From the NCBI GenBank assembly GCA_016906335.1, contig JADEYG010000015.1:186001-250000 (forward strand): a DNA stretch of 64,000 bases. The letters are read 5' to 3'. The position numbers and the translations under genes were made by a program. This stretch comes from Novakomyces olei. Taxonomy: Eukaryota. This document shows, in pieces, positions 6,854 to 62,322 of the stretch (position 1 is its first letter; every line of letters begins with the position of its first letter). The notes beneath the pieces are model-generated. The model saw nothing but the letters and a program-made list of their open reading frames with translations, was not told the DNA's origin and ran no database searches.

Positions 6854-8251
6854 ATGTCAGTTATTACGGTGGATCATCAACGGTACGTTTAAATTCGGTC
6901 GAACGCTGATATACTTTTCATTTTCTGTCGAATAAACTTTGAAACTAACGCAGACAGCGATCAGGACTTTTCCAATGCTCTGCACGGTAAAAATGTGACA
7001 AAGCGCACTGGATTCCAAGCAATGTTGAAGAAAGACCGCAATGCTCAACGCGAACATTCAAAGCAATATTTTGATCTTTGGGAGAATGGCGATGGTACGT
7101 TGTGGGTATTTTCACCTATTAATTTTAGATACTGCTGCGTCCCAGGAGCGCGTCGACTTTTACAAGAAACTGACAAACTCTTATTATAACTTGGTATGAT
7201 TGTGCAGAATCGCTGGTTACATGATTTGTTTTTTTTAATATTTTGGTTTATCCCTTTTGATTGCTAAATGTTCATTCATTGTTCATTCATTGTGCTTTTT
7301 CAGTATAATCCTTATTTCTTTTCTTCCAACGTTTCGTACAGCCATCATTCTAATTCTGCTTAGGCTACCGATTTGTATGAGTACGGCTGGGGCCAATCAT
7401 TCCATTTCTGCCGATATTACGCCGGCGAAGGCTTTTACCAGGCGCTCGCTCGTCATGAGCATTACTTGGCCCTGCGTATGAACATCCCACCTGGAGCACG
7501 AGTTCTCGATGTCGGCTGTGGTGTTGGCGGCCCTGCTCGGGAAATTGGTCAGTTCACTGGTGCCAGGATCACCGGAATCAACAACAACGACTATCAAATT
7601 GAGCGCGCTCGGCATTATACGGAGAAACGCAATCTCTCCAACTCGATTGATTATGTAAAAGGTGACTTTATGCATCTGCCCTTTGAAGATAATACGTTTG
7701 ATATGGTTTATGCCATTGAGGCTACAGTACATGCTCCAAATTTGGAAGCCGTTTACAAGGAAATTTCTCGGGTGCTCAAGCCAGGAGGCACTTTTGGTAT
7801 GTACGAATGGGTAATGACTGAAAAGTACGATAATTCCAATGCCGCACATCGCGAAATTAAGCGCAAGATCGAGATTGGTGATGGAATTGCCGAAATGCAA
7901 CCTATTTCTGTTGCCAATGATGCTCTCAAGGCTGCTGGATTCGATATCCAGTATGCTGAGGATTTGGCAGAGACGGATACCTCTGATTTTCCTTGGTATT
8001 ATCCCATTGAAGGCGATTTACGCAACTGCCAGACACTGTGGGACATGTTCACCTGCTTTAGAATGACAAAACTGGGCAGATTTTTCACTCAGTCTTCCAT
8101 TGGCATGCTGGAAAAAATTGGCCTCGCTGGCGAGGGAACAAAAAAGGTCGGCCAGAGTTTGGCCGATGCTGCAGACGCGCTTGTTGCTGGCGGCAAGCAA
8201 AAACTGTTCACGCCTATGTACATGGTCATCTCCAAGAAGCCAGTTGCATAG
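6854..8251 (+). CDS. erg6: Sterol 24-C-methyltransferase; exons 6854-6882, 6958-7094, 7129-7193, 7364-8251
   Basis: YYNLATDLYEYGWGQSFHF, VLDVGCGVGGP, YAIEATVHAP, LKPGG and GGKQKLFTPMY motifs; GT-AG introns give an open spliced frame. Confidence 0.95.
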
Positions 8252-10781: not shown

Positions 10782-13298
10782 TCATTCAAAAGGATCATAT
10801 TCTCCAGTAAAGACATGCAATATACCAGGACGAAGGCCTCGGTTATCGAGAGCCGTTTGCAAATCCACCGCCCGAGCGAGATTGACGTCGATAATTCCGC
10901 GTTTGTAAATATAGCAAGAAATTGTATTGGACATTGTTGCAGCACGATACTCGAAGACACACGATCGATCTGGTAAAATTTCCGTATGATTATAGAGATC
11001 AGATTCCGGACCCGAATGATCTCTGCCTTCTTTTAAGATTGCACCGTTTTTATCCCCCTTCCTCTGCGTATTGTCCGTCGAAATTGCATGCAAATATCTG
11101 TGCCCTTCTACATTGTCAACGGCATCGATGCCCATTTGCTCTATTATTCGTTTGCGCTTCAAAACGTCATTCAGTTGGACTTTTAACCTTCCGCGCTCTT
11201 TGAAAAGAGCGTTTACTGACGTCTTTTTGAGAGCTCTTTTGTCTTGCGAATCACAAGGTCTCTTCAAACACGTTTGCGTATGAGCTGGGTCAGCGTTTTC
11301 TGGTACTGCTTTTGCAAAATAGACTCCAGTTTTGTCTCTGGATTTACTGTGTCCCGTCTTGTTAGCTGCTCCAGGGTCGATGTTCTTCTGCACCAAAGTC
11401 AGGGGCATATTTTCACCGTGCCTGACTCTAAAGTATCGAGGTCCAGTCTCGCCAGCGCTGCGAGGAGGTACCAGTCCACTAGTCGTATGATCAAATTCAA
11501 GTATTGTCTTCTTCGAAATCTGTCTGGGGGTTTCTGTAATCGAATTTGATAGTACACTTGGGTTTAATTCCATCGGTGGTTCTTTTGTAGAGCCGAGCAA
11601 AGTTCGGCCTTTGGTAGTGCCTCTTTCTTCTCCACTTGATTCTGTGTTTTTTTCCGCTAACTTCGGGGCCACCACACTGTCTTCATTATCGTTAATGACA
11701 TCAACACCTTTATTGTCAGTAATTTTTAATATATTTCAAATCCATTTAACTAGTTTTTAATTGATAAACTAGTTAATTGATTCTTCTTTTTCTTCTTCTT
11801 TTTTTCCCTCTTGTCAATCTCGACATACCCGTACTTTTCCTTGAAGATTCTGTAATCTCATAGTTTTGCAAAACTTTACTCTCATTGTTGTTGCTTTTCT
11901 CCTTTTCTGTCGGCCCATTTATACTATCATTTCTCTTTGGCTCTTTTTGTACTTTTACAACCCTCTGTACGTATTCTTTCCGAGCAGCAGCTTTTTCATT
12001 TGACAGATTATCGCTCTCATCTTCGTTAATGATGATATTTTCCCTACTGTCTCGTTCTTTGGACCTCCCTGTAGTTTCGATGGCAATTCTTTCCAAGCTG
12101 CTCTTACTCCCTGTCGTTTCCGAATTCTCCTTGTAAACTGCCTCAAACAATTCTTCAACTGCCTGCAAAACTGCCTCTGTGTCCTCGAAAAAAACCATAT
12201 CCTTTGCCGGTTCCACATTGGCATCATACGAGCCTTCTTCCGTCGTTAGAGACACATACACAAAAGGTCGCACACCAGCTAAAGGCGCAAACGACTGTTG
12301 AAATCGCCTCACTATAGCTTTTCCAAGCTCACGGCCAATAGTAATCGGCCGTGCATCCACACAAACGCACGACTCTTGCAAGGACGCAGTAGGCCAGTCC
12401 TTTGGCAGCAGAGTTTTACAGCTTGGTTTGGGTATAAAAGCTTTAATATATACATTATTGCTAGTATGCTGCTTCCAAAAGTGACTTGTACCAATAGCAG
12501 TTCCAAGGATTTGACAGAACCGGCTAGTCTCATCCTTGTTTGCCGGTATAGAAAGCTCAAGACGGCTGCCTTTTCCTGATTTGCAAGTCAAGGTGAACCT
12601 CGCATTATGTGATAGAGCATAAGATTGGATTAAAGACTTGACGCGCAAAGATATGCGATTTGCAGCTCGACGAAGAGCCTCGCGTCTAACTGGCAAACGC
12701 TCAAACGGTCCTGAAACCTGTACACTTGTTCCCTCTGGATGAGCTTCCGGCTTGCATCTAAAAAATTAGAAATGCTGGCAAAAAAATAATTTGAGAACAA
12801 AGAAATAAAATAAAATATTAAACAAAAACCAACGAAAACAAAATAAAAAAGGCATTAAATCAAGATTTTATTTCCAAATTTTCAAAACAAAACTTACGAT
12901 ATTAACGTACCTGCCGCGTCATAGACAGCAGTGTTTCCAATGGCATCGTCGTGTGTACGCGTTTCGACGCGTACACTCGCAGCAATTTCGCAAATACTCG
13001 CTAATGCTTCACCTCGAAATCCAAGAGTACGCACTGATTGCAGATCGCTAAATACACTAATTTTACTTGTACAATAACGCGAGCAGGCGCGCCAAAGGTC
13101 ATCATGGCTAATGCCGCTCCCATTGTCCTTCACCGTGATTCCAGAAACGCCATTAGCATCCAGAATTACTTGAATATTCGTGGCGTTCGCGTCAAGGGCA
13201 TTTTCCACAAGCTCTTTAACAATTGACACGGCATCTACAACGACTTGGCCCGATACAAGGGAGCGAACACACTCGGTATCAAGAACAGCAATCGGCAT
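10782..13298 (-). CDS. MutL-family protein (Mlh2/human PMS1-like); exons 13298-12898, 12757-11829, 11707-10782
   Basis: GHKL ATPase motifs VKELVENALDA, VKDNGSGI, TSKI, LGFRGEALASI; transducer YDANVEPAKD; in-frame splice junctions; 3' end less certain. Confidence 0.85.
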
Positions 13299-13327
13299 CT
13301 GATGTCACATTGAATAAATATTATTAA

Positions 13328-13648
<321 letters not shown>

Positions 13649-13700
13649 TATTACATTTTTTATATTTATTCTCGTGGTCATAAATGCTATGTAGCTATTG

Positions 13701-15832
13701 ATGCGAGCATCTGGCCTGTTTAGCCCACCGTTGCGTGTACCAATCAGTCATGCGCTCCGCAAGACAGCGTGTACATTGTCATTGTTGCAGTTACGCTTTA
13801 ATTCTTACTCTAACCCCTTAATATATGCACTGTCGACAGCGCCTGGTAAGAGTGCACTCTCAGTATTCAGAGTCTCCGGTCCAGATGCGATAAAGGTTGG
13901 ATGAATCATCGATATTTTACGACTTATTTCTTTCTTTTTATTTTAAAAAATGTTTTTTTTTTAATTTTTTTTTTTTTTTTGTCTATTGTTCGTGCTGATT
14001 CAACAGGTCTACGAGTTAATGTGCCCTGGGCAAAAACTGCCTCTTCCTCGAGTCGCAAATCTGCGCACAATAACGAACCCGGTCACTATGCAGATAATCG
14101 ATCAAGGTCTCGTTTTCCGTTTTGCTGCTCCTCATTCTTTTACTGGGGAAGATATGCTTGAGTTTCAGGTTCATGGTGGAACTGCTGTTGCACGTGCAAT
14201 GCTGCAAGGCTTCGCTGATACTGCAAAGGCAGGCGATTTGCCTTTACGAATGGCTGAGCCTGGCGAGTTTTCGTTCCGAGCAGTAGAAAATAACAAGCTA
14301 GGCCTTACACAGGCAGAAGGATTGGCTGATATCATAAATGCGCAAACGGAGTATCAGCGAGCGGCTGCTTATTCCCAATCTCAGGTGAGTATTTGGACTG
14401 TTTGCCATGGGAGCTATGCTTTCGTGTACCTTTTCACTATCATAAATGACAGTTTCTATTTAATTTTAATTTTAATTTTAATTTTAATTTTTTATTTGTT
14501 TCTCTTTTATTATTGTTGTTGCAAAATTAGTATACATTCAACCTTATTCTTGGAGTATATTACCATTCACACGTTTTCCATTCGAGAGTACTAATGGCCA
14601 GGGAGGTCTGCAAGCATTGTACACAGAATGGCGGCAGCAAATAATCCAAAGTCGTGGACTGGTGGAGGCGGTTATAGACTTTTCGGAGGAGGACCAAGTG
14701 GATGAAGGAATAATGCCACAGATTAAGGAGACCGTAGAGCGACTGAAAAACACGCTTTTAAAGCATATGCAATCTTCTTTGCGAGGAGAAATATTACGAC
14801 AGGGAGTTCGTGTCGTTATTGTTGGACCGCCCAACGCTGGAAAATCGTCACTGCTAAACGCGCTAGTTCAACGGTCTGCTAGTATCGTTTCACCCCAGCC
14901 AGGTATGAAGTTTATTCTTGACTTTTTACCCTCGCGTCACACATGTCTTTTTATTAAAAAGCATTTATTCTAGACCTATTTTAATTATTTCAATTATTTT
15001 AATTATTTTAATTATTTTAATTATTTTAATTATTTCAATTGTTTTATTTGTTTTATTTGTATATTTCTTTATTTTAATACAATACCATATTCAAGAATCA
15101 TAATCTCTTGATTAAAATTCCCCATGATCGGTTCTAACGGCAGGAACGACACGAGACGTGGTGCAAGTTTCCCTCGATATTGGAGGAATTCCCGTTGTAT
15201 TGAGCGATACGGCAGGAATACGCAGTGGTGCTTTGGACGTGGTTGAGCAAGAAGGAATAAGGAGAGCACAGGATCAGATTGAGCAGGCTCACGTAATCCT
15301 GTTTCTTGTTCCTGTTGCGTATACAGACACTGATCTCGGCGTGATAGCAGAGACCAATGCTCGACTAGATGAGCAGAAGACTGTTGCAGTACTCAACAAA
15401 ATTGATACTTTAACCGATAAAACCGCGGCTCAAGTTGCCCGTGAATTACGGCTAGAATTGCGGGAAAAGCTCGTGCAAATTACAGGAAATAATACGTTAA
15501 AAAATGAAGTGGTTGAAGCAAACTTCCCAGCGCTGTCGTGTACAACGCGTGAAAACTTGGACGCTTTCCTTTGTCAATTAGAAGGCATTATCAAATCTGT
15601 GGTCGGAAACGACTCGGGTCACATTAGTTTAGGAACAAATGCTCGGCATCGTCAACATACACAAGCGTGCATTGACGCACTAAACCGGTTTTCTGATGCA
15701 GTAGATTTTGATATCGTTGTTGCAGCGCAAGAATTACGATGTGCAAGCGATGAACTCGGCCGGGTTTGCGGCTATGTCGATATTGAAGATGTACTAGGCC
15801 AGATATTTTCCGATTTTTGTATCGGAAAATAA
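13701..15832 (+). CDS. mss1: Mitochondrial tRNA-modification GTPase MnmE/TrmE; exons 13701-13895, 14007-14384, 14602-14902, 15144-15832
   Basis: IYALSTAPGKSA, SFTGED..EFQVHGG, AEPGEF, GPPNAGKSS, GTTRD, DTAGIR, NKID, C-terminal FCIGK. Confidence 0.95.
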
Positions 15833-16361: not shown

Positions 16362-16459
16362 GTCGGCGGCGGTTCGGCGAGAGTGATTAGATAAATTATG
16401 TGGAGAAATGGCGATAATTAATTCTATCAAAGCTGGGAAATTTGCTTGTTTATATTTAC

Positions 16460-16744
<285 letters not shown>

Positions 16745-16750
16745 ATTCTA

Positions 16751-18853
16751 CTATACACAGGCAAACTCCACATTGTCCCAATCCGCAATGGGTCGTGTAC
16801 GCTCCAGCGCTAGCGAATACTCTAGATCCTTCTTCGCTTGCTCTCCGTACCCGAGTTCCTGATGAACTGTCCCCAAAAGCAGCCAGGCTTCTGCACAACT
16901 CCAGCCGTCCTGCCTTGTGGCAATATCCAGTAACTCATCGGCCCGATGAAGTGAAGCTGGTTCTGATGCCTTTGCCACTTCAATCAGCATGCCAGCGAGT
17001 GCTACTGCTACCGCACAGTTATCTGGCTCAAGAAAAAGCGCCCTCTCCAGCGTCTCAACAGCCTCATCGATTTTCCCAAGGGCGTAAAGAAAGCAGCTAT
17101 AGGCAACGCTATAGTCACTCTCGTCCGGAAGCAGCTCACTGGCCTCTGCCAAGGCTTGAGCACACAGCTCTGTGTCTGCATTTTCCAATGTCACGGAGGC
17201 ATAAGCCAGCCAGAGCGTCTGAATGGCTTTTTTCTGTCTATTCTCCGCCAGCTCGTTTGTATGAGAGAGCAATTGACCCGACTCGAGTGTCGACGGCCGC
17301 ACTGACAAACTTGCTGCCTTTTCCCCACGCGACTTGAACCTGAACAGCTTACGCGAGTCTTGACGCGCAACTTTAGACTCGATTGCCTTGTCAGCGGAGG
17401 CTGCTGCACTCACGTTACTCGTTATTGATCTGGCATCACTAGTAGCGAGAGCAGACAGGTCAAAGGCGGCCTTGAGAGCTGCCTCTGCCGCTTCCGGGCC
17501 ATTGATTACATTTTCCAGCTTTATCAGAGTAGCATGAACCCTTTGAATGGCAATATAATCATCAATAGCAAAGTACCAGGGCACATTGAGAGAAGTAGAG
17601 CGTTCAAACAGCTCAATTGCCACAATGCAAGTCTGGCGCGCCACTTGTAATTGGTGCGTTGCACTGTACAGTAAAGCCAGTAGATGGTAGGCCGAGTAAT
17701 TGTCGGGTTTAAGCCTTAGCGATTTCTTCACAGATCCCATTGCCGCCGCCAAGTCTAGATTTTTCGCCTTTAAAAACCCTCTGTGGAACCATACTTGCCA
17801 CTGCGTGTCGTCCAGGGCTAATGACTCGTCAAAATCGGATTCTGCCTGTGCCTGCAATGCACCACGTTCAACGTTATCCGCACTAAATGATTGAAGCGCA
17901 GTTATAAAGCCTCGAGCGTGTAGTATTTTAGGGGCAAGCTTAGCTGCCAAATTTTGCTGCTCTCGGCCTTTACTGGGGCCTTTATTGGGGTTTCCATCGT
18001 TCCTCAATTCTTTCTGCTTTCCTTGGCCACTCGGCTCTGCCGAGTCCATTTCGTTTCCTTCCTCTCCATCTACTTGCCCCTCTCCTTGCCCCTCTTCTCG
18101 CTCAATTTTTGTACATTTTTCATGCAGTCTAAACGACTCGGCAATGTACGCCCGTGCTCTACGCATCTCGCTATTCTGAGCAAGATAAATGGCCCCCTCG
18201 GCAAAAGCCTGGACGGCTACTGTTCCGTCTTCAGCCTCCTCCTCAGACTCTTCTGTTTCAATATGCGCAGTCTCGCGCATTGCCCTCTCTATTGTAGCCG
18301 CATCTGTTTCCTCGGCTTTAAGCACGACCATTCGGTAAGCGTCTAGAGCACGAATTGCCTCTGGCACCATGTGCAGGGTGCGGTAGCACTGGAAAAGGCC
18401 TCGTAGAACAACAGGCTGCTGGAAGGTTACAGTGGACGCCTCATACAGAAGGGGCACCAGCTGTGCGGCGGCCAGCGAGTCGCATCCACTCAGTTCCCAA
18501 TGCGCCAGCATTAGCTGGAGCACTATAGCGGCCGACACGTTTTTGGCTCCTGCCTGAGGGAACGAGGACTGCATAACAATATCCCTGTGGCAGACTTCCA
18601 AGACCAATGCCAATTCAGACTGGAGCCTTTGGCACTGCTCGTCCTGCACGCGCTCAAGCACTGAAAGGCTCTCCGCCCGCCTTTGGTTTTCCTGCACTAA
18701 CAGTCGGGCCAAGTGTAACAGATTTTGCGTCTCTTGCAAACTCGCTTTATGGGCGCCTTTTTGTAGTCGCACAGAACTGTACTTGGCATACTCGGCCCGC
18801 AGCCGAGTGAGGAGAGCGCTCGCCTCCTCTTGCGCGGCGTCATTGTAGGCCAT
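16751..18853 (-). CDS. ypp1: TPR-repeat protein, Ypp1/TTC7 family (PI4-kinase scaffold)
   Basis: Multiple TPR-like helices; AYHLLALLYSA and C-terminal GWSCAEAWLLLG...SLALERTRPI resemble TTC7/Ypp1. Confidence 0.7.
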   Translation of the reverse strand: MAYNDAAQEEASALLTRLRAEYAKYSSVRLQKGAHKASLQETQNLLHLARLLVQENQRRAESLSVLERVQDEQCQRLQSELALVLEVCHRDIVMQSSFPQAGAKNVSAAIVLQLMLAHWELSGCDSLAAAQLVPLLYEASTVTFQQPVVLRGLFQCYRTLHMVPEAIRALDAYRMVVLKAEETDAATIERAMRETAHIETEESEEEAEDGTVAVQAFAEGAIYLAQNSEMRRARAYIAESFRLHEKCTKIEREEGQGEGQVDGEEGNEMDSAEPSGQGKQKELRNDGNPNKGPSKGREQQNLAAKLAPKILHARGFITALQSFSADNVERGALQAQAESDFDESLALDDTQWQVWFHRGFLKAKNLDLAAAMGSVKKSLRLKPDNYSAYHLLALLYSATHQLQVARQTCIVAIELFERSTSLNVPWYFAIDDYIAIQRVHATLIKLENVINGPEAAEAALKAAFDLSALATSDARSITSNVSAAASADKAIESKVARQDSRKLFRFKSRGEKAASLSVRPSTLESGQLLSHTNELAENRQKKAIQTLWLAYASVTLENADTELCAQALAEASELLPDESDYSVAYSCFLYALGKIDEAVETLERALFLEPDNCAVAVALAGMLIEVAKASEPASLHRADELLDIATRQDGWSCAEAWLLLGTVHQELGYGEQAKKDLEYSLALERTRPIADWDNVEFACV

Positions 18854-41994: not shown

Positions 41995-42682
41995 CTACAT
42001 GGTCAGGCTCATAATCGTGTTTACAATATCGCCATTGTTCTCCTTGAGAGCTTTGATAGCCTTGTTACGCGAGACACTCGTCTGCTGCTGGACGAGTTCA
42101 ATATCCTTTGCTTCAACGCCCGTAGCATCGACAGGCTCACCGTCATCCTCCTCAGCCTCTTTGCCCTTGGTGACAGCCTCACCCAAAGGTGCAGAGGGAG
42201 CAGAGCCGGCAGCGGCCTGTTGAGACTTGTCCGCGCCCTCTTGCTCTTCCTGAGCAGCGAGCTGCTGAGCAGCAGCAGCCTGCTGCTGCGTACCAAAGTC
42301 TCCCAAAGGTTCCGTCCGTACTTGACCAAAGATGACGTACGAGTCAGAGTGAGGGGACTTGTAAACCTCTGGGTTATTGATAGCAAACAAGCCTGCGCGA
42401 GTACGGCGGAAGGCAATTCGAGTAATTCCAGGTACCGGCTCGAGCTTCAGCTTGGAGATAAGCGAACGGGCCTTCTTTTCTGCCCGTGAATGGACAGCAA
42501 TTGATGCTCCCGGTGGGATTTCACCACCTGCCTCAGCTTCCTCCTCATGTGCCTCATTCTCAGAGCCAGACGACTCGTGCTCGGCCGGCGCAGAGACGGC
42601 TGCTGCCTGCTCGTCGGTGAGCTCTTCGATCTTGTTTGACACTGCATCGTTAATGGGTAATGCTTAAACATCCACGCTTACT
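41995..42682 (-). CDS. egd2: Nascent polypeptide-associated complex alpha subunit; start codon A|TG split by intron 42681-42642
   Basis: SRAEKKAR..LEPVPGITRI..INNPEVYKSP..YVIFG NAC domain and C-terminal UBA (KDIELVQQQ..SRNKAIKALKENNGDIVNTIM). Confidence 0.93.
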
Positions 42683-45051: not shown

Positions 45052-45978
45052 ATGTCGCAAGGAAAGTTTTTCACTTTGAACACTGGCGCCAAGATTCCGG
45101 CTGTTGGTATCGGCACTTACAAGTCAAAGCCCTCCGAGGTTAAAGAGGCTGTTGCGGTTGCCCTGGAAACAGGCTATCGTCATGTCGACTGCGCCTTCCG
45201 CTACATGAACGAGAAGGAAGCCGGTGAAGCTATCCAGGAATCAGGTGTGCCTCGCAACGAGCTCTTTGTGACTTCCAAGCTGTGGAACACTTACCACTCC
45301 CGCGTGGAGGAGGCACTCGACATGTCTCTGGAGAATTTGGGCTTGGAGTACCTCGACCTGTACTTGATGCACTACCCTGTACCCATGCAGCCAGGTGTCA
45401 ATGACAAGGATTATCCCAAAGACGAGCGCGGTGAGATTCTGCACCAAAAGAACTGGAGCATCAACAACACGTGGGCCCAGATGGAGAAGCTTTTGGATAC
45501 TGGTAAAGTCAAGGCCATTGGTGTCTCCAACTTTGACACAAAGCACTTGGAGCAATTGGCTTCTACTGCCCGTGTAACGCCTGCTGTCAACCAGGTCGAA
45601 TTGCACCCACTGCTCTCTCAGGAACGGCTCAAGAACTATTGCGATGATCACAACATCCACTTGACAGCCTACTCCCCACTGGGATCTGCCTCGAGCTCAT
45701 TGCACACTGAACCGATCATCCAGTCTATTGCCGACAAGAATGGGCTTTCTACCGCTCAGGTTATGGTCTCTTGGGGTATCGCCAAGGGCTGGTCTGTGCT
45801 GCCCAAGTCTGTAACGCCAGAGCGTATCCGCAGCAATTTCAAGACCGTCGATCTCTCTCCAGAGGACGTTGAGGCTATCGACGGCATTGGCAAGCGCGAC
45901 CGTAAGCGATACCTTGACTACAAGCTTGGTGTAGAGTTGTTTGGCGACGACAAGCACTGGAAGCCGGTTGAAGCTTAA
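45052..45978 (+). CDS. NADPH-dependent aldo/keto reductase (Gcy1/Ypr1-like), intronless
   Basis: LNTGAKIPAVGIGT, GYRHVDCA, FVTSKLWN, YLDLYLMHYP, KAIGVSNF, NQVELHP, AYSPLG, LPKSVTPERI. Confidence 0.95.
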   Translation: MSQGKFFTLNTGAKIPAVGIGTYKSKPSEVKEAVAVALETGYRHVDCAFRYMNEKEAGEAIQESGVPRNELFVTSKLWNTYHSRVEEALDMSLENLGLEYLDLYLMHYPVPMQPGVNDKDYPKDERGEILHQKNWSINNTWAQMEKLLDTGKVKAIGVSNFDTKHLEQLASTARVTPAVNQVELHPLLSQERLKNYCDDHNIHLTAYSPLGSASSSLHTEPIIQSIADKNGLSTAQVMVSWGIAKGWSVLPKSVTPERIRSNFKTVDLSPEDVEAIDGIGKRDRKRYLDYKLGVELFGDDKHWKPVEA

Positions 45979-49712: not shown

Positions 49713-51131
49713 TTACATAATCACATCTAGAGCCTTTAACAATTGACTATGCTCTGCACGCCGGCTCCCACAGCCTTCACCTTGTCCAGCAGCGGCTTCA
49801 GATATTTTAGGGTCAGCAGCCACCATGGCAGAAACCGCTCGCCGCGTCTCTAAATTCGGCGTCCACAGCTGCAGGGCGCGATAATAAGCGCTGGTCTGCA
49901 CAAAATGCTGAGCCAAGGAAATAACAATCCCCTCATACTTTGCGGCTTCTGCTGACCGGCGAGATAAAGGAACAGCGTTTAAAGCAAGGCAGGCTGCATC
50001 AAATCGGCCCCGTGACAACAACCAGCGGATAATTCCGAGTTCTTGCCCGGAAATAGCCGATGCAAACCATGAGCAAGAGATGTAGCGTTCCACAATATCA
50101 TTACGGCCTTTGCGAACTGCCGATTTCAGCAGTAATCGACCACAGGCAATCACTGTCCTATTGAAATTGGCAGCCTTTTCATGCAAAAGCTGCAATGTCT
50201 GCAAATCTTGCAGGCCAATTTGCAAGCTACCCCGTCTAACGAGCGTATAATAAAACATGGAGACAATGCCTGGCGTGTTTAAAAGGCTAATCTGCGTAGA
50301 ATTAGGCGATTCAGGCAGCCAATATGGCCTTAAACCCGTGTAAAAGGCCTCGAGTTGCGCATCCAGCGCAGGGGAGTGGCCACAATTGCTCTGAACTATT
50401 ATTTGAAGTAACAAAGCAGCAGCGTTGCTCGCTAAAGCCGATCGGGAAAAGAGGCCGATAGACTCGGGAGAGATTCCGAGTTGAGTCTCGGCTGCCTGAA
50501 GTAGTTGCATTGCATCATCGACTGTTGCCACCGCGTTTGCAGATGGAGAAGAGTTTAAATTGGCTCTGGCTCTTGATTTGTCTGCAGTGCAAGAAAACTT
50601 TGCCGCCGAAGAAACGCGGCTGCGCTCCCCACTTGCAAGCTGAGCAGTAGCCCTGCCGACTTGGCCCCCACCTGGTCCCCCACCTGGTCCCCCACTCGTA
50701 CCCCCACTCGTACTACTGACCCCCACTTTTCTTGTAGTTGCCTGTATTAACGGTGGAATTGCTTTTAAAACTGCGTGAGCATAACTCTGCTGGTACCTGT
50801 CCTTGTTCATTATACTCGCCAGCGTCTTCAAGGGCCGATCACTGCTGCGTATAGCTTCCAAATCCTTTTCTGCCTGATCAGCAGCAAAGCTGTGACCGAG
50901 TTTGCTGCCACTGCTCGTTCCATGGCCACTAGCATGCAGCGGGTTACTGTTGAGGGCAATATTGAAATGGTAGTTTATTGCTCGTGAAGCAGGAGCGTCT
51001 AAATGCCGCGAGAAAGATTTCTGTAAATCTTCCATTAGCTTTTGAGTTTGCTTGGTACGGAGCGGGAAATGCCTCGTCCACCCGGAAAAATGGGCTCGCA
51101 TGGCCGTGCTGAACGAGCCCCGCCTGATCAT
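49713..51131 (-). CDS. Hypothetical protein, possibly mitochondrial and helical-repeat-like
   Basis: ~470-aa ORF; first ATG at 51131 gives an Arg/Ser-rich, acid-free presequence-like N-terminus; no family recognised. Confidence 0.65.
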   Translation of the reverse strand: MIRRGSFSTAMRAHFSGWTRHFPLRTKQTQKLMEDLQKSFSRHLDAPASRAINYHFNIALNSNPLHASGHGTSSGSKLGHSFAADQAEKDLEAIRSSDRPLKTLASIMNKDRYQQSYAHAVLKAIPPLIQATTRKVGVSSTSGGTSGGPGGGPGGGQVGRATAQLASGERSRVSSAAKFSCTADKSRARANLNSSPSANAVATVDDAMQLLQAAETQLGISPESIGLFSRSALASNAAALLLQIIVQSNCGHSPALDAQLEAFYTGLRPYWLPESPNSTQISLLNTPGIVSMFYYTLVRRGSLQIGLQDLQTLQLLHEKAANFNRTVIACGRLLLKSAVRKGRNDIVERYISCSWFASAISGQELGIIRWLLSRGRFDAACLALNAVPLSRRSAEAAKYEGIVISLAQHFVQTSAYYRALQLWTPNLETRRAVSAMVAADPKISEAAAGQGEGCGSRRAEHSQLLKALDVIM

Positions 51132-51564
51132 CTGGGCTGATTGACCTAATTTACACAATACTCTGCGTTTCTTGCTTGTAGATTTATTAGTGTTTTATAG
51201 CGTTAATCATATATATACACAATTATATACAATTAATTATATACAATTAATTTCTGTTATTTGCCGCGTTTAAATTATTAATAGTATACAGGCTCAATGT
51301 TGCAGTATTACAATATTGAAGTTACTGGTTATTTATTTATTTATCAGCTATTTTCTTCTCGACTGAATTCAATAAGCGAATGGCCAATTCGATTGACGGT
51401 ACAACCAGGATCGAGGAAAAAGCTTAAACACGAGGACAAACTATTCGTAAAAGACGGATTCAATTCAAGACCAGTTTGAGTTTTAAATAAATTAAAATAA
51501 TTAAATCAGATTCTAATCCAAATTCAATTTAGATCGAATCAAAGCAAAAGCAATCGACAACAAT

Positions 51565-54500
51565 TTACTGGCTGTAGCCCCAGCCGGTACCTGACCCATG
51601 CTGAGCACCCCCACGGCTCGCATAGTAAGGCGGCTGCCCACCGTAGCCTCCTCCAAAGCCATATGCCGGGTAGGCTCCGCCTCCTCCAGGAGCAGAACGG
51701 AACTGCGAAGTAGACGGAAAGGCTCCCGGAGTACTATTGCCTCCCTCACTAGACTGGCCGGGTGCTGTAGTCTCTTCCGCGGGCTGATAAGCCTTGTACT
51801 CCTCTGTAAAGGCGCTGTTCTCATTACCCTGAGGCATTTTTGTCTGTGAGTCTGGAGCATTAGCATTAGCACTTTGCTGGACCCTTTGATCCTGGGGAAA
51901 CCTCTGATCCTGTTGAAACTGGTAGCCCCCTCCATACTGCCCTGCTCTGTGAGAATAGTCTCCAGCACGGCCAGAGTACTGCTGCTGGTGGTCAAAGGGC
52001 TGACCATAATTAGGTACGGAAGTCGGTACCGATGTCGGAAGCGAAGCCGGTGGAGCCTGCTGTGAGTAAGGGGATTTTTGTTGGCCGGTATAGCCACCGG
52101 AATAGCCTCCCGTGTACCCATACTGGCCCATATAATAAGCAGTATAGGGATTATAATACGGATGCATCGGGTAATTACCCGCACCGCCAGACTGCTGAGC
52201 AGTTTGAGCTGAGGGCTGTTGCGGTTGAGGACTGGGGCCGGAATGAATTCCGCCTTGATCGGATAAGTTTGCCGATGAATAGTCGGCTGCAGTATAATGT
52301 GTCGGCAAGCCTCCCGTGGTGTCCCCTGAAGCCAGCTGAGCATTGCCTGAAGGCTGAGCAGCCTGATGTTGCTGAGCGTCGATTGCAGAAGGCTGCTGGT
52401 AAGAAGCAGCGGCTCCAGGATCGTAATAGGTATGATGAGAATAAGATCCTGAGCGGGGCTGCTGCTGTTGCTGTTGCTGCTGCTGCTGTTGCTGCTGCTG
52501 ACTATTATTATGATGAAGGTGATGCTGATCATAATATCCGGGGACATAAGAGTTTGCTGCGGGATCAAAGCTTGTCTGGTTGAATTGCTGTGGGTGAGTA
52601 TAGTCTCCAACATTGGTATCATAAATACTGCCTCCTCCAGGGGCGTTAGAAGCCTTGCTTCCCGGCTGGCCTCGAGCAGCAATATGCTGTTGAGGTTGTT
52701 GAGGCTGTTGAGGAACAGCATGGATTGGAGGAGTACTGCTCATAATCGGTGGAGTATGAATATGAACCGGCTGTGCTCTAGCAGCAAACGGAGACGCTTC
52801 CGTTCCAACAGCCGGGGCTTCAATAGCAGAAGGCCTGGGAGCAATTGAAGAAGGAGCCTCGGAGATTGAAAGGCTACCAAATTTCAGATTTGCAGACTCA
52901 GCAGAAGCATTGCCGTTCCCTCCAGCCGGACGCTGATCGTACAGGCCAGTAGGGCCCTTGTAGATAGGGAACATTTGCGGTCGGTACTCGTGGTGATGAT
53001 GGGAGGATGATACATTGTTAATTGCATCCAGATTATTCTCAGTCAGGGGGGCAGACTGGTCTTGCTGCCAGACAGAGGCATTAGCAGGCTCCACCGCCCG
53101 GAAATTATCCCTCCAAAACCCGGAGCCCGGTTGTTGAGTGGGCAGAGGAGAACTAGCGTTTGTAGAGGCGTTTGTATTAGTGTTTGTACTATTAGCATTG
53201 CCGCCTCGACGGGGAGCTGCCTCTTTATTTTCTCTAGCGACCATTGCCGCTGGACCCGTAGGAGGCGCAGGAGCAAAAGAAGTACCAGTGCCTTCATGCT
53301 TAGTTTCCGGTAGGGAGACTCTAGCCGCTGCTGGGCCAGACGGAACAGCAGCCGGTAACGCCTGTCTTCCTTGTCCTGATTGAGACTGAGACTGGCGTAA
53401 AGCAGCTGGCGCTGAGGGTACTTGAGCCGGCGTTGGCACTTCTGCCGGAGCTGCTGCCGGCTTTACAACATTGGCCCAAGACGCTTTTGTTCCCGGCGGG
53501 ATAGTTTTGGAAATGTTTGGCCGAGCTCCCGAAATCTCGCTCGTCTGTGCACCAGGAAATGTATTGGGTTCGAATCCCGTGACGCTGCTTGCTTTTGTAG
53601 CCGCATCGGACCAGCCAGAGATGGATCGTGTCTCAATGTTGTTGCTTACACTCGTAGCGATTGTATGGCCATCAAATGAGTTTGTATCCATAAATTTTGA
53701 TGTGCTGCTCGACGCAGCCTCAGTTGATTCGGGGACATTATTCGTATTTTGTCCTGCTGCTGCTGCTGCTGACCAGGAAGGTAAACCGGAACCTGCAAGC
53801 TGAGTGTGCTGAGTAGGGGCGGCTTCTGCTTTTCCGACTCTATTGTTCGCCCAAACGGAGTCTGTTCCTGCAGAGCCTGGGCCGGGCTCAGGTGCTAATG
53901 AGTCTTGCTCGGCAAGGCTGCCGTTAACAGCGGGCTGCTTACCGCCTTCCCGACGGTTTCGTGCAGGTTTTACTGCACTGCCACCCCGGGCCACATTCCG
54001 TGGGCCTTTGCTGCGTGTGTCTAATAGGTTAGCTCTGAAAACGTTGTATGCGCTTTGTAAAGGGAGAGGGAAGGCTAGAGGTGAAAATATAAGGTCAGAT
54101 AAGCATAGACACGGCTTCCATATTGAACAATATGAGCGTGAAGAAGACACGAGAGACATTCCCTGTCGGATAAAACGCAGTATTAAAATCAAAGAAAACA
54201 TGAGGCAATTGTGCAGAGTAGTGGAAAACTATGAATAGAAAGAAAGTTGAAATAAATGTCCAACTATAAATATGATTGCCGATCTATCATATGGCGTAAA
54301 ATAATAAAATAAAAAACAATCTAGAGCGTCATTACCATTACGCGCCTTATTCCGTTCACCAGCAGTTTTGACCGAGCCACGAGAAACGTCCGTAGCAGGC
54401 GAAGCCGTGTCTGCTGTGGCTGCACCTGTCCCCTTTCCAGGTTCGCCCACCCGGGTCCTAGGCTTTCGCTTTACTTGACCCCATTGTGAAACATGTCCTA

Positions 54501-55890: not shown

Positions 55891-56768
55891 TTAATCTGTA
55901 CTTATAAAATCTTCAGATGTTGGAAACCGTAGACGCCGCCGTTCCGGAGTCGAAATTATTGAAGTTTCCGATTGCCTTCCAGTCTCTTGCGAGCTAGTGA
56001 AAAGCCTCCGTGGTGGACAAGCGTCGAATATACCTTTTTCTTTTGGTGCTTTACGTCGAATTTTCTTGCCCCGGCTGCGGCTGTTAGTTGGCAATTCTTG
56101 AATTAAATTTATTTAAAAAAAATGAAACAAAGATAAATTTAAATAACAAGGAAAGTATCTTATGGGAGAGCAACTTACAAGGTATAGATAATCGTTCCGT
56201 CTGCGTCCGGTGCCACATTGCTTTTCACAGACTTTGTAGTTGCTGATTTTGTGGATGAAGGTTCGTCCTCGAGAAACGGATTCTCCCCTTCCGCAGGGAG
56301 TGAAGACACGTCTTGTGGATCATGGAATAATGACTGTGGCTCTTTTTTTGGCGTTTCATTAAGCAATTCGTATAGCATTCGGCTTTTAGGCGGCCTAGAA
56401 ACTGTATTTCCCCGATCGTTTGAGACAATGTTTGACGCATTGGACGGGCTGCCTAAAAGTGCCTGTTCACGGCCATTTGATTGCTGCCGAAGCTCTTGTT
56501 TCTTTAAGCCAAGTTTATGATGTGGAGTTTTTACGGGCGTAATCGGCGCAAAAGACATTGGCCCAGAATGATGCTTTGCCGTCTCGGCTGATGCTGTCCG
56601 TTTCCCTGCTGAGATACCCTCATTGTACAATCTGTCTTCATTGTGATGCTTGTCAAGCTGCCGACGTTTTGTCCGCGGAGGACTATCAAAACGAGGGCCG
56701 TAGAGCGGCGTGGCGGGCGTTGGCGGCAGAGCGCTGCGTTTCGCTGGCGGCGTACGAGGCTCGTCCAT
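55891..56768 (-). CDS. rum1: CDK inhibitor Rum1/Sic1-like; exons 56768-56179, 56074-55891
   Basis: Many TP/SP CDK sites (PITPVKTP), ENPFL; splicing creates DGTIIYTFRGKKIRR followed by PRRLF, matching the Rum1 inhibitory region YVFRGKRIKK..KPKLLF. Confidence 0.8.
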
Positions 56769-57627
56769 TTCTGGCCGAGGAAGAGAAAGAGAATAGAAAA
56801 GCGATGTAGAAAAAGTCACAATTTAAGCACCAAACTTGACGTATTTGACTGCAACCGGTTTCGGGGCTTTTTAAGGATAAAATACGGAACGAGATATGCC
56901 TTGACAAGAGTCAGGAGAAGCAAAACTGGTACTTTGGCCTTTAGAACAAACAGTAGATCCGAGAAATAACAATGTGGGTTGAAAATAAACGCCGCTGAAT
57001 GCGATAAGATACGATTGCCTTGGCCTCTTTTGCTAATTCAGCCTGACCGACTCTTTGCGAACGGTTTGCAACAGAGTCCCACTTGGCCCGTTACTGCCTC
57101 ACTTTAGACGAAAACGTGCAAAAACACGATGAAAACTTTTGCAATTAGCTCCCTGGACTTTTAAACTTCGTTTCTTTGAGCTGTACTTGACGCTCGTTAT
57201 TCAAGATTGGGCCGAGCAACAATTGCAGGCTTCTTTGAATGACTCGAGAGGATCAGCTCGAGACTTGTTCTGCAATGGCTGGTTAGATCTAACGCGTCGC
57301 GTTGCATTAAACAAGTAAGCTATCTGGCACGCGCGCCGAGAGATTGATATTCTTGCGCATTAAAATGCTTACTTTTGAATGTAAGCAATAGTAGATGCCC
57401 ATAAACGGCTTAATAAATGCGCCAAGTCCGGTTTGTGATTTGTCCATTTCCAAGTAAAACTTATTACAGACACGGGGCCCGTCCACATAATGGCCAAGAC
57501 CCCTATATTACATAATACGCAAGGTTTTATTAAATACAAAATTGCGATTCAAACCATGGGTGCGAGGAACGCGTAGCGTAGCGACAATAACAAATCAATC
57601 AGCTCGTTAAGTCTCTTTCGTTCGGCA

Positions 57628-58678: not shown

Positions 58679-59127
58679 GATTTTGGGTTTAGCTATTGCA
58701 TTTTATAATTAAATGTTATTTTTCCTCCTTTTTTAAAATTTGCTTAATTCACGTTTTGCGGGCAATATCAAAGTCATTATTTTTGGCAGTCAATCTCTGG
58801 CAAGAGTTCGTTAGGCCAATATCAGGCCTTAAACAAACCAAATCATTTCTTATAAAGGCAAAAATCTGAGCAAATAATGGATCGAATGAACCGATCTATA
58901 CAATCTCGTTTGGAGGTGATTATCATCACGCTTTAGTTGGAGTTCTACGCAATGATATACGGTGAAACAAACTCAAGCTTGAAGATATGAATTAACAAAG
59001 CAGTCCGAGCTCAGACGAAATCAGAAAAGAAAATGATCGGTATAAAGAGCCTTCAGGTGATGCGCCATCGAGTGCACAACGCTCCAAAGCCTTTGTGTTG
59101 ATCGCGCAAAGAACCGGAATTCAATAT

Positions 59128-59305
59128 TTAGGCGATAACGCTGCTATTAGTAAAAGAATAATAAAAATGATTGAAGCAAACACAAATTCTCAACTTACCA
59201 TCCATAGTAAGGATGGGCGCGTTCAAGGTTGTTGCTCTGAGCGCCAGAGAAAAGGTCATCGGCCTTGTTGCCAGAGTCGGCGATGTTCTGTGCGATGGGC
59301 TGCAT
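59128..59305 (-). CDS. CaaX-type (M-factor/a-factor class) lipopeptide mating pheromone precursor, 39 aa; exons 59305-59199 and 59140-59128
   Basis: Spliced MQPIAQNIADSGNKADDLFSGAQSNNLERAHPYYGCVIA*; canonical 58-nt intron GTAAGT...TACTAATAGCAG splits the Cys codon TG|C; upstream TATA. Confidence 0.85.
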
Positions 59306-59389
59306 GATGATTGAGAAGAGAGAGTGTTTGGTGTTTAAAGACCGTTTGTGATTGAAGAATGTGGATGCTGTTTGAAGGTGCAGAGCTGC

Positions 59390-59400
59390 TGTTTATATAG
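59390..59400 (-). promoter_or_regulatory. TATA box of the pheromone precursor gene
   Basis: Minus-strand CTATATAAAC about 90 bp upstream of ATG 59305, followed by a CA/CT-rich leader. Confidence 0.7.
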
Positions 59401-59442
59401 ACATTTCTCTGGGTGTGCGCATGATTGTATAAAGAGCCTTTG

Positions 59443-59673
59443 TCATTCACTAGCCATTCACAACGTAGCATAGTCTTTTCAAGGACTGGGTTTGCCTTGC
59501 ACCTTGTATTTTGCCATTCAGAACCATTCACAGAACGTGCGCCGGTGAAAGACAGCCCATTCACACTTTGTAGTAAGGTTCTTATCGGATTACCTTTGCC
59601 CATTCACGAGCCATTCACGAATTCTAACGTGTTTTCATTCTGCGACCTTGGCCATTCACAAATTGCATTCACA
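59443..59673. promoter_or_regulatory. Array of nine CATTCA (six exact CCATTCAC) motifs upstream of the pheromone gene
   Basis: CCATTCAC at 59454, 59524, 59557, 59600, 59611, 59652; variants at 59443, 59514, 59665; all in the same orientation. Confidence 0.7.
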
Positions 59674-59863
59674 AATTCTCTACTGTTCTTTTATTGCTTT
59701 CCCTTTTGCCATAAACAAAAAGACGTTTCTATTTTTCCTACATTGTTTTGAAGGCTTCCCTTCGAGTCCAAGTATCTTCCTTTGTATTTGTTAATCCAGC
59801 TGAAACACAAAGGCTTTTGTCATTGGCTGCAATATACAAATTGAAGTCTTTTCACCCACCCAC

Positions 59864-59900
59864 CCATTCATTCATTCATTTATTCATTCATTCATTCATT
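59864..59900. repeat. (CATT)n tetranucleotide repeat
   Basis: CCATTCATTCATTCATTTATTCATTCATTCATTCATT visible directly. Confidence 0.85.
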
Positions 59901-60592
59901 GACGAATGATATAGCATTATTGCTTTATTTTGCGCGTTCACAAATGCTTCTCCATGATATCCACCTTATCTCTTTCTGTTTATTCATGTGATTTTTATTC
60001 GAAGACTATTCGGCAAACAGCTCGGCGCAATAAAAAGAATCACACTGGCTCCTTTCGCCTTGTATTATTACTGTTTGACTACTCTTCAAGCTAATAGGAG
60101 AATGAGCAAGTTGAATAGCAGAAATTTCATAATCACAACCTGGTAGGATGCCTTGCAATCAATACTCGTTGGGAATTGTGAGTATAAGAAAAGATATCTG
60201 TTACGAGGCATATATCGATGAAATGTAGATCTTTTGAATTGAAGTAGACCGAAAAGGTTTCCAGACGCATAAACAAATGGTTGTAAAAGCAAACGGCAAT
60301 GTCTTTGATACAAGTTAAATTAGCCCATATCAGCTTTTCATAAATTCTGACGTTAGAAGGGCTGTCACACGATACATGTATATTGCGAATACTCAAAGCG
60401 CTATAATCAGTAGTCAATTTGGGTTTATTTCAAGGTGCGTCGATCACCTGAATAAATTTGGGCGTCATTGACCAATAGGTCGGACAAGACTCTAGTCTTG
60501 TTCAACGCCGATTATTGGATCGTTGATCCATTTCATTCAACGGCGGAGAAACACAGACTATTCATTAAAAAATAAGGCAAAATTCGGTTTAA

Positions 60593-62322
60593 ATGAATTC
60601 TGCATGGAAAACAACAGCGGCAGCAGTTGCCACTGCTACTGCTTTTATTCTATGGCGTTCATATCTGGCTCCATTCAGTGCGACGGAGAAAAAACTGCTG
60701 CAAAATAATGGTGAGTCCGCAAAAGAAGGAGAAGAGAGAAAGGATAATTATTTAATGAAAAATATACATTTAATGAGCAGTTCGTTCGCGGCAATTTTAT
60801 CACGTATAGTTACTGACTTTCAAAAGTAGAGTCCGAGTTTCTACGGAAGAATTCACGAAGGCTTATATTTGCGCTAGCCGATGTCGATGACAGCGGTACC
60901 TACGATGTACGCGTCTTTGCGCACAATGTGACGCGTCCAGTAACCGTTGTTTTCATACACGGGTTGGGCGGCAATGTGCAACAATGGGAGCCTCAATTAC
61001 GCGCTTTCTGCGACCAAGGCTATGGCGTAGTAGCCATAGATCTACCGGGCCACGGTGCGTCAGCTTTTGCTCCCAAACAGTGGGCAAGCTATGAGAGCAC
61101 ACGGCTCGTACGTGTAATAGAACACTGTCTACATACTCTAGGGCTGGCAAACAAGATTGTTTTGGTAGGACATTCTATGGGGTGCCAGTTGGTGGGCAGA
61201 CTGGCGTATCAGTCTGGCAAAACCAGCAAACAAGTCGCAGTTGACGGCAAACAGGTATTGAGCAATATTACTGGTGTAGCACTTCTCGCTGGCCGGGGCC
61301 CCGTGCCTGTAACCTCGGAGATGGCAGCCGTGCGAAGGATGGTTAATATACCGGATTTTTTGTTCAACGCGTTCCGTCGTCGCGATCGGGCGGAAGGTCC
61401 CGATTCTAAGAGCGTAAGGAGAATGGTATCAAGCACGGCTTCGCGGTCTGTACGCACGCAGCAACTCGTATGGAATTTGATGTCAAAGACTCCAGTATGG
61501 AAACGGACAGTGAGCGGTTTAAAGCCGGCTACTGCGGCTGAATGGCAGGAATTGCGAGTACCCGTGCTTGTAATTGCCGGTCAAGATGTAAGTTTATTTG
61601 CAATTACTTCTATAAAGGAGTGCCTGGACAAGTGTGGTCAACACAGCCCTGGTTTGTCCGGCTCTTGTGGTTTACACCTATCATTTGTATCCTTGTCGCG
61701 TCTCTTTAGTTGACACAACAGGACCGTGTTGCACCGCCTGAACAGTCCGAGCTAATAGCAAAGCTGGTCCCAAATTGTCGTGGATACGTTACAGTTCCCA
61801 ACGCCGGACACAGTCTTATGCTCGAAGCACCAGAAAAGGTTTGTTTTGTAGATTTTTATTGTCTTGAGGCCTGTAGTCTACGTATCCAAAAGCGCGGTAA
61901 CGCCATTCTATTCATTCTTCTCTCCTATGCTCTTAGTGTGTCTATACATTATTCTGGCGAGTTTGCTTTGATTGTTCACATTTTTTCATTTAAGCATATA
62001 AATTCAAATATTGTTTTACATTATATTTAATTATTATTATCGTCGCATTTAACATTTACTTGAATTTTACTTGTTTTTACACGTATTTTTAATTAATCTC
62101 TATTTTATTTCTATTTTATTTCCATTTTATTTCCATTTTATTTCTATTTTATTCCTATTTTATTTCTATTTCGCTTTTGTCCACCCGTATAGAATATATG
62201 CGCCTCGACAATTCTGCCTTGTGCGATGTCGGCGCAGCGCCTCCAAGCGTCTCTTTATTCCATTGGACAAAACTGACTTTCAGATCAATGAATTGCTACT
62301 CTCGTTCGTCGCGTCACTGTGA
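60593..62322 (+). CDS. Alpha/beta-fold hydrolase with an N-terminal membrane anchor; exons 60593-60710, 60830-61587, 61722-61838, 62284-62322
   Basis: FIHGLGG oxyanion motif, DLPGHG, GHSMG nucleophile, AGQD|D acid, GHSLMLEAPEK His; open spliced frame. Confidence 0.9.

Follow-up and report, generated by a model that had tools for sequence, protein, structure and literature searches.

Introduction

In S. cerevisiae the pheromone-response elements of the pheromone-induced genes are Ste12 sites with the sequence TGAAACA, and the mfa and pra genes of U. maydis carry sites (ACAAAGGGA) for the HMG protein Prf1 upstream as well as downstream. For Schizosaccharomyces pombe, work of Kjaerulff and colleagues from 1997 reportedly described modules consisting of an M-box and a weak Ste11 box in the M-specific genes mfm1-3, mam1 and sxa2. 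The CAAX pheromone of the fission yeasts is made by the M cells, and according to Xue-Franzen et al. 2006 (PMC1693924) the strictly M-specific genes of S. pombe contain imperfect Ste11 boxes (AACAAAG), which are bound by Ste11 only if Mat1-Mc is present. In the same text the M-box is placed 14-26 bp upstream of the Ste11 box, corresponding to about 1.5 or 2.5 helical turns.

The strings in Table 3 of PMC1693924 allow a count of these distances by hand. In mfm2, ACAATGG and ACAATAG are 12 bp apart and AACAAAG follows 14 bp past the second box. In mfm1 and mfm3, ACAATT and ACAATG or ACAATA are likewise 12 bp apart, with the Ste11 box of mfm1 located 15 bp past the second one, and sxa2 contains two ACAAT boxes at a distance of 10 bp. 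All mfm1-3 modules are in direct orientation and lie between -133 and -192. The assignment of the M-boxes in these strings is our own reading; the underlining is lost in the text copy of the table.

The mature M-factor of S. pombe is YTPKVPYMC (PMC6342294), and the S. octosporus form differs from it at three positions (PMC13099959). According to Seike et al. 2021 (PMC8146891) the M-factor gene of S. japonicus was not identified, and no later report of this gene was found in the literature searched. Here we describe a motif array upstream of a predicted pheromone gene within a stretch of 64,000 nucleotides, which is called the window throughout. The array is a well-documented candidate cis-element and appears to be a known kind of promoter module with a different sequence.

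A predicted CAAX pheromone gene

The gene consists of two short exons on the minus strand and is preceded by a TATA box.

59199..59305 (-): exon 1 of the pheromone precursor, 35 codons starting with the ATG at 59305-59303 and the TG of a split Cys codon
59141..59198 (-): intron of 58 nt with 5' GTAAGT, a TACTAAT branch-like site and 3' CAG
59128..59140 (-): exon 2, the C completing the Cys codon, then Val-Ile-Ala-stop (CAAX box)
59392..59399 (-): TATA box (TATATAAA); the ATG lies 87-94 bp downstream and the first array unit 44 bp upstream

The spliced product is a precursor of 39 residues with the C-terminal CAAX box Cys-Val-Ile-Ala. Short and ending in Cys-aliphatic-aliphatic-X-stop, it fits a predicted CAAX lipopeptide pheromone precursor of the M-factor or a-factor type. 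The residues preceding the Cys show no resemblance to the M-factor of S. pombe or S. octosporus. A phmmer search with exon 1 against 1.84 billion representatives yielded three hits, all of which were taken as chance matches; two of them are tandem-repeat proteins that match a stretch of 13-19 residues repeatedly.

A second gene of this kind, ending in VIA-stop, was not found in the 64-kb window, the remainder of which encodes ordinary housekeeping proteins and contains no mating-type genes. Some open frames could not be assigned to a family (3550-4611, 10782-11675, 49713-51158 and 56175-56819), and the minus-strand frame 51565-54201 encodes 878 residues; it is rich in Gln, Ser, Pro and Gly, contains a poly-Gln run and matches no Pfam family.

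Probable relationship of the window to fission yeasts

In a search against solved structures the fimbrin ORF of the window matched the S. pombe fimbrin 1rt8 with 745 bits and, judged by eye, roughly 80% identity, the runner-up being the fimbrin-like protein 1pxy with 398 bits. For the capping triphosphatase ORF a single solved structure was matched, chain 4pn0, which we take to be Pct1 of S. pombe. From the similarity of the fimbrin, the single match of the capping enzyme and the GC content of the window (0.430) we infer that the DNA probably belongs to Schizosaccharomyces, most likely to S. japonicus or a close relative; this is a placement and not an identification. The chromosomes of S. japonicus have a GC content of 0.435-0.447 (PMC7619369, Table 1) and S. 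osmophilus has 0.383 (bioRxiv 10.1101/2022.12.06.519325). An affiliation with the early-diverging budding yeasts was dropped on the basis of the solved-structure matches of fimbrin and Pct1.

The aldo-keto reductase ORF has a best protein match of 72%, and of 56% among the named hits, and the AP-3 mu ORF reaches 38-43% at best with filamentous ascomycetes as named hits. In the collection of 5.8 billion proteins no near-identical entry was found for the ORFs 45052-45978 (best 72%) and 4987-6357 (38-43%). The source genome and its close relatives seem to be absent from this collection, although Schizosaccharomyces is well studied.

Copy number, conservation and geometry of the array

8-mer and hexamer scans combined with an alignment of the units delimit the array as follows, the unit sequences being given for the plus strand.

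59443..59672 (-, gene sense): nine-unit motif array
59443-59450: unit TCATTCAC
59454-59461: unit CCATTCAC
59514-59521: unit CCATTCAG
59524-59531: unit CCATTCAC
59557-59564: unit CCATTCAC
59600-59607: unit CCATTCAC
59611-59618: unit CCATTCAC
59652-59659: unit CCATTCAC
59665-59672: unit GCATTCAC
59865..59900 (no strand): (CATT)9 microsatellite called by TRF, the only such run in the window, 190 bp from the array and repeating the TGAATG core

In the sense of the gene the motif reads GTGAATGG, with the extended consensus TTGTGAATGGC. The preliminary description of this DNA had reported nine CATTCA cores of one orientation in about 230 bp upstream of the TATA box, most of them paired at 10-13 nt, together with a (CATT)n run, and all of this was borne out. 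The cores start on the plus strand at 59444, 59455, 59515, 59525, 59558, 59601, 59612, 59653 and 59666, thus extending from 59444 to 59671, and the identical orientation of 9/9 cores has, taken alone, a two-sided probability of 2 x 0.5^9 = 0.004. Four pairs are formed with start-to-start spacings of 11, 10, 11 and 13 nt. The run could be defined as (CATT)9 at 59865-59900; on the sense strand its proximal end (ATGAATGG) differs from the motif by a single mismatch. The location in the upstream region of a CAAX pheromone gene was also confirmed, as the array lies 138-367 bp upstream of the pheromone ATG, compared with 921 bp from the ATG (60593) of the divergent neighbour, an alpha/beta-hydrolase gene.

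Over the whole 64-kb window CATTCA is not enriched (51 matches versus 45.7 expected). Nine copies in 230 bp compare with a background of 0.13-0.18, which corresponds to a Poisson P of about 5e-13 per window of this size and of about 1.5e-10 after multiplication by the number of 230-bp windows. The next densest 230-bp windows contain six (the CATT microsatellite) and three copies, and this density scan revealed no second cluster elsewhere in the 64 kb. The 8-mer CCATTCAC occurs eight times in the 64 kb, with a mean of 1.65 in shuffled sequences and none of 100 shuffles reaching eight. Six of the eight copies are located in the array (59454-59659), and the other two are inside open frames, at 14563 (in 13986..14594) and at 42486 (in 41995..42642).

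Conservation between the units is confined to the motif: the mean pairwise identity of the nine units is 0.92 in the 8-base core versus 0.31 and 0.26 in the 12-nt flanks, and an alignment of five modules gave the same contrast between core and flank. The pairs are direct repeats in head-to-tail arrangement and not palindromes. The cooperative binding of a dimer that had been proposed at the outset is not favored by this geometry, into which two monomers in phase would fit better than a symmetric dimer. For the array as a whole we do not claim helical phasing (R = 0.71 at 10.5 bp; P = 0.05 for a fixed period and 0.25 when 10-11 bp are scanned).

TRF does not call the array as a tandem repeat, and copies running head to tail over the whole stretch, as in a micro- or minisatellite, were not found. 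Inside the array it detects just two exact mini-arrays of 1.9 copies each, with units of 11 and 13 nt, which coincide with two of the pairs (P3 and P4 below). Because these two pairs are exact short tandem duplications, their spacing may partly reflect how the copies arose. A coding explanation of the array was rejected; the overlapping frames 59425-59751 (+) and 59256-59603 (-) have no match to a Pfam family, and the spacings of 10, 11 and 13 nt break the reading frame. An RNA gene was also rejected, the sole hit being a chance match to SCARNA7 below the threshold (18.8 bits, cut-off 65, E = 0.095).

Tandem repeats are a general feature of this DNA, for the 64 kb of which TRF lists 55 rows; most of them are AT-rich intergenic arrays. 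Two (TAT)n microsatellites are very long (13319-13653, about 112 copies; 16463-16744, about 94 copies), and the second one yields a spurious poly-Leu open frame at 16408-17337. At 7269-7293, between ORFs matching sterol methyltransferase and probably in an intron, an exact 11-nt tandem repeat (TGTTCATTCAT x 2.3) carries CATTCA and an M-box-like CATTGT in each copy; it is probably a product of slippage.

Modules and adjoining HMG-type cores

If the sequences next to the boxes are included, the array can be divided into four paired modules and one single unit, and further HMG-type sites are found around the gene.

59435..59461 (-): module P1, sense GTGAATGG, 3 nt, then GTGAATGA and ACAAAGGCT sharing one base; 130-156 bp upstream of the ATG
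59509..59531 (-): module P2, sense GTGAATGG, 2 nt, CTGAATGG, followed by CAAAA as a weaker core
59557..59571 (-): S, an unpaired unit, sense ACAAAG, 1 nt, GTGAATGG, with the HMG core upstream of the unit
59593..59618 (-): module P3, sense GTGAATGG, 3 nt, GTGAATGG, then GCAAAGG; exact 11-nt tandem repeat (x 1.9)
59646..59677 (-): module P4, sense GTGAATGC, 5 nt, GTGAATGG, followed by CCAAGG as a weaker core; the pair repeats 13 nt exactly in tandem (x 1.9)
59088..59096 (-): ACAAAGGCT for the third time, about 30 bp past the stop codon
59741..59747 (-): AACAATG, one canonical core of the Sox/M-box type, located about 440 bp upstream of the ATG
59801..59828 (+): distal cluster of HMG-type sites, TGAAACACAAAGGCT then inverted CTTTTGTCATTGG

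A weak HMG-type core is located on the gene side of every pair from P1 to P4. The full ACAAAG is present in P1 and S alone, P3 has GCAAAG, and the cores of P2 (CAAAA) and P4 (CCAAGG) are poor. By hand count the distance from the distal box to the CAAAG-like core is 16-20 bp in P1-P4, and the proximal box abuts the core. With one mismatch allowed, the composite GTGAATG-11 nt-CAAAG matches module P2 only in the window, a number that is likewise reached by 29 of 100 shuffled sequences.

The CTTTGT cores that had been noted nearby were found again on the plus strand at 59091, 59438, 59566 and 59780, and ACAAAG is present on the same strand at 58995 and 59807. Counted on either strand, the 1.7 kb from 58900 to 60600 contain six ACAAAG cores, compared with 52 in the whole window. 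All three copies of ACAAAGGCT in the window (59088, 59435 and 59807) are within 728 bp around the pheromone gene; 0.62 copies are expected over the window, and 3 of 100 shuffles reach three. An inverted repeat aligns TGAATG-ACAAAGGCT (59435-59449) with TGAAAC-ACAAAGGCT (59801-59815). The sequence TGAAACA at 59801 is a perfect copy of the budding-yeast Ste12 element and abuts ACAAAGGCT (59801-59815); it may simply belong to an extended HMG site. Two exact 14-nt repeats bracket the gene, GTATAAAGAGCCTT in direct (59040-59053 and 59427-59440) and AAAGCCTTTGTGTT in inverted orientation (59086-59099 and 59804-59817). Together with the three copies of ACAAAGGCT they put HMG-type sites upstream as well as about 30-90 bp downstream of the coding region.

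As stated in the preliminary description, the motif is neither the Ste11 TR-box nor the TGAAAC element. TTCTTTGTTY (AACAAAGAAA on the other strand) is absent from 58900-60600 and occurs once in the window, and TGAAAC is found in 0/9 array units, with one TGAAACA at 59801. STREP and the FLEX core were not found in 58900-60600, and CRE occurs there once, at 60348. Sites of the MADS/Mcm1 type were rejected, with no match to CCWWWWWWGG or to a looser form in this region.

Comparison with described pheromone promoters

The arrangement resembles that of mfm1-3 of S. pombe in several respects. In both cases a CAAX pheromone gene of a fission yeast is served, provided that our placement is right, and sense-oriented boxes are separated by about one helical turn (12 bp in S. 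pombe, 10-13 bp here). The HMG core on the gene side is imperfect and ends in G, in contrast to the full AACAAAGAAA, and the distance to the ATG is similar (-133 to -192 there, -130 to -156 for P1). The AATGG half of GTGAATGG is shared with the ACAATGG boxes of mfm1/mfm2.

The box itself is different, reading GTGAATGG instead of ACAAT(G/A)G, so that GTG replaces the purine-AC half. The S. pombe type of M-box, ACAAT(G/A)G, does not occur in 58900-60600, compared with 21 copies in the window, so that the new motif occupies the place expected for M-boxes. Furthermore, the module is present four to five times here but once in the mfm genes, the proximal box abuts the HMG core instead of being separated from it by 14-15 bp, and six copies of the 8-mer are exact, whereas the boxes in Table 3 of PMC1693924 are degenerate.

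With S. cerevisiae and U. maydis the locus shares the presence of a short motif in many copies around a pheromone gene. The Prf1 site of U. maydis resembles ACAAAGGCT, which is present three times here, and in both cases the sites are located on both sides of the gene. Differences are that the repeated motif of the array is not the HMG consensus and that Ste12, the factor of S. cerevisiae, is absent from the Schizosaccharomyces species listed in PMC3998117.

In the literature searched no description of the motif was found, and its strings appeared only as primers or in unrelated contexts, in line with the earlier suggestion of a possibly undescribed element. No a2-site sequence is given in the text of the preprint by Britton et al. 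(10.1101/565234).

A putative Mat1-Mc/Ste11 module

The array probably switches the pheromone gene on, and a role in mating type or pheromone response, as proposed initially, would still be the most sensible reading. Our preferred but tentative reading is that the array acts as the principal upstream activating region for a gene of the M-factor type and is a lineage-specific counterpart of the M-box, used by Mat1-Mc together with Ste11. Each module would combine two boxes, the first being GTGAATGG and the second following one helical turn later, with a weak HMG core (ACAAAGG or GCAAAGG), and the array would comprise four modules plus one half copy. The GTGAATGG boxes would be bound by Mat1-Mc, the HMG protein of M cells, or with lower probability by another factor, and the bound protein would help Ste11, the general factor of sexual development, onto the adjoining weak CAAAG cores. 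Transcription of the pheromone gene would thereby be limited to M cells under starvation and pheromone stimulation. Two boxes one turn apart would bring two bends or two proteins to the same face of the DNA, and the repetition of the module would provide a high output. Activation of the gene by the array, Mat1-Mc and Ste11 as the factors and M-specific expression are all assumed from the precedent of S. pombe.

The presence of the array beyond chance, its restriction to one strand, the conservation of the motif only, the proximity to the pheromone ATG and the enrichment of HMG cores argue for the Mat1-Mc/Ste11 reading. Further arguments are the probable placement in Schizosaccharomyces, whose CAAX pheromone is a product of the M cells, and the likeness in layout to mfm1-3. 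CCATTGT and CCATTCA differ by two base-pair flips (G.C to C.G and T.A to A.T), and we count this difference in its favor because readers of the minor groove, e.g. an HMG box, discriminate such flips least. On the other side, we know of no HMG box that prefers G in place of the core C (ACAAT/ACAAA). Further counter-arguments are the unusually tight 8-mer, the proximal box abutting CAAAG and the poor cores in modules P2 and P4. The pattern may also be mutational in part, with P3 and P4 as exact tandem duplications and AT-rich tandem repeats being very common in this DNA (55 TRF rows).

A more far-reaching version, which we consider rather doubtful, is that GTGAATGG is the site of a mating-type HMG protein with changed specificity. 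Mat1-Mc of the S. japonicus lineage and its targets would have co-evolved from the ACAATG M-box with the central C.G flipped, and the motif would mark the whole regulon of M cells, including the M-factor gene or genes.

Alternative readings of the array

It is conceivable, at a likelihood clearly below even, that the boxes form a homotypic cluster for another activator, e.g. of the C2H2 or Myb type, which would drive strong transcription upon starvation or pheromone stimulation, with the cell-type specificity coming from the HMG cores or from elsewhere. A near-invariant site of 8-11 bp is more typical of zinc-finger or Myb proteins than of HMG proteins, the boxes contain G at the position where HMG sites carry C, the literature searches gave no match to a known motif, and S. 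japonicus is listed in PMC3998117 with 11 C2H2 and 11 Myb proteins. This explanation comes without a candidate factor, however, and it would make a coincidence of the CAAAG abutment and of the layout resembling the mfm genes (PMC1693924); moreover, M-specificity in S. pombe is described in that paper as dependent on Mat1-Mc with Ste11. On balance an unrelated sequence-specific activator, although not the reading we would choose, is nearly as likely as Mat1-Mc. Much less probable is that the array arose through slippage and small tandem duplications starting from the neighbouring (CATT)n and has little or no regulatory role. The TGAATG core recurs in the microsatellite at 59865-59900, in two of the pairs 11 and 13 nt are repeated exactly, and the 55 TRF rows of the window are mostly in AT-rich intergenic DNA. 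Yet the five separate sites have unrelated flanks (0.26-0.31) and a core identity of 0.92, a contrast that neutral decay would not give, TRF does not detect the whole array as a tandem repeat, and slippage leaves the strict orientation, the place just upstream of the TATA box and the pairing of the units with HMG cores to be accounted for.

Known elements with a similar sequence explain the array even less well. HomolD (CAGTCACA) replaces the TATA box as a single copy in TATA-less ribosomal-protein genes of S. pombe, and five units of the array read CATTCACA, one mismatch from this consensus. With no exact box in 58900-60600, nine copies over 230 bp instead of one at a fixed distance, and a gene that has its own TATA box at 59392-59399 and does not encode a ribosomal protein, we regard a HomolD-like core-promoter element as very unlikely. 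The same low probability applies to sites of the TEA/ATTS type (Tec1 or AbaA). TEA proteins (Tec1, AbaA, TEAD) bind tandem sites cooperatively and recognize CATTCY with a pyrimidine at position 6; the array shares the tandem direct repeats and, with CATTC, the first five bases of this consensus, but position 6 is A in 9/9 units, and the resemblance to TEA sites pointed out in the preliminary description is not supported. The least probable of all is that the boxes are variant Ste12 pheromone-response elements with TGAATG for TGAAAC. TGAATG (59435-59449) and TGAAAC (59801-59815) do hold the same place beside ACAAAGGCT, but TGAAACA is not enriched, with 14 copies in the window and two near the gene. 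For both factor families Additional file 3 of Todd et al. 2014 (PMC3998117) gives a count of 0 in S. pombe, S. japonicus, S. octosporus and S. cryophilus and of 1 in S. cerevisiae (TEA/ATTS, PF01285; STE-like, PF02200). Because the genus to which we assign the window is tabulated without these factors, the TEA and Ste12 readings lack a binding protein, an argument that is valid only if the placement is right.

Significance

If the window is from S. japonicus, the gene at 59128-59305 (-) is a strong candidate for the M-factor gene that had not been identified in this species (PMC8146891), and the 8-base motif would be a handle on further M-factor genes and on the regulon of M cells by a genome scan. 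Under the Mat1-Mc/Ste11 reading the array would offer a tractable case of a cell-type switch in two species of one genus in which the layout, a weak Ste11 site beside two boxes separated by one helical turn, was kept while the recognized sequence changed.
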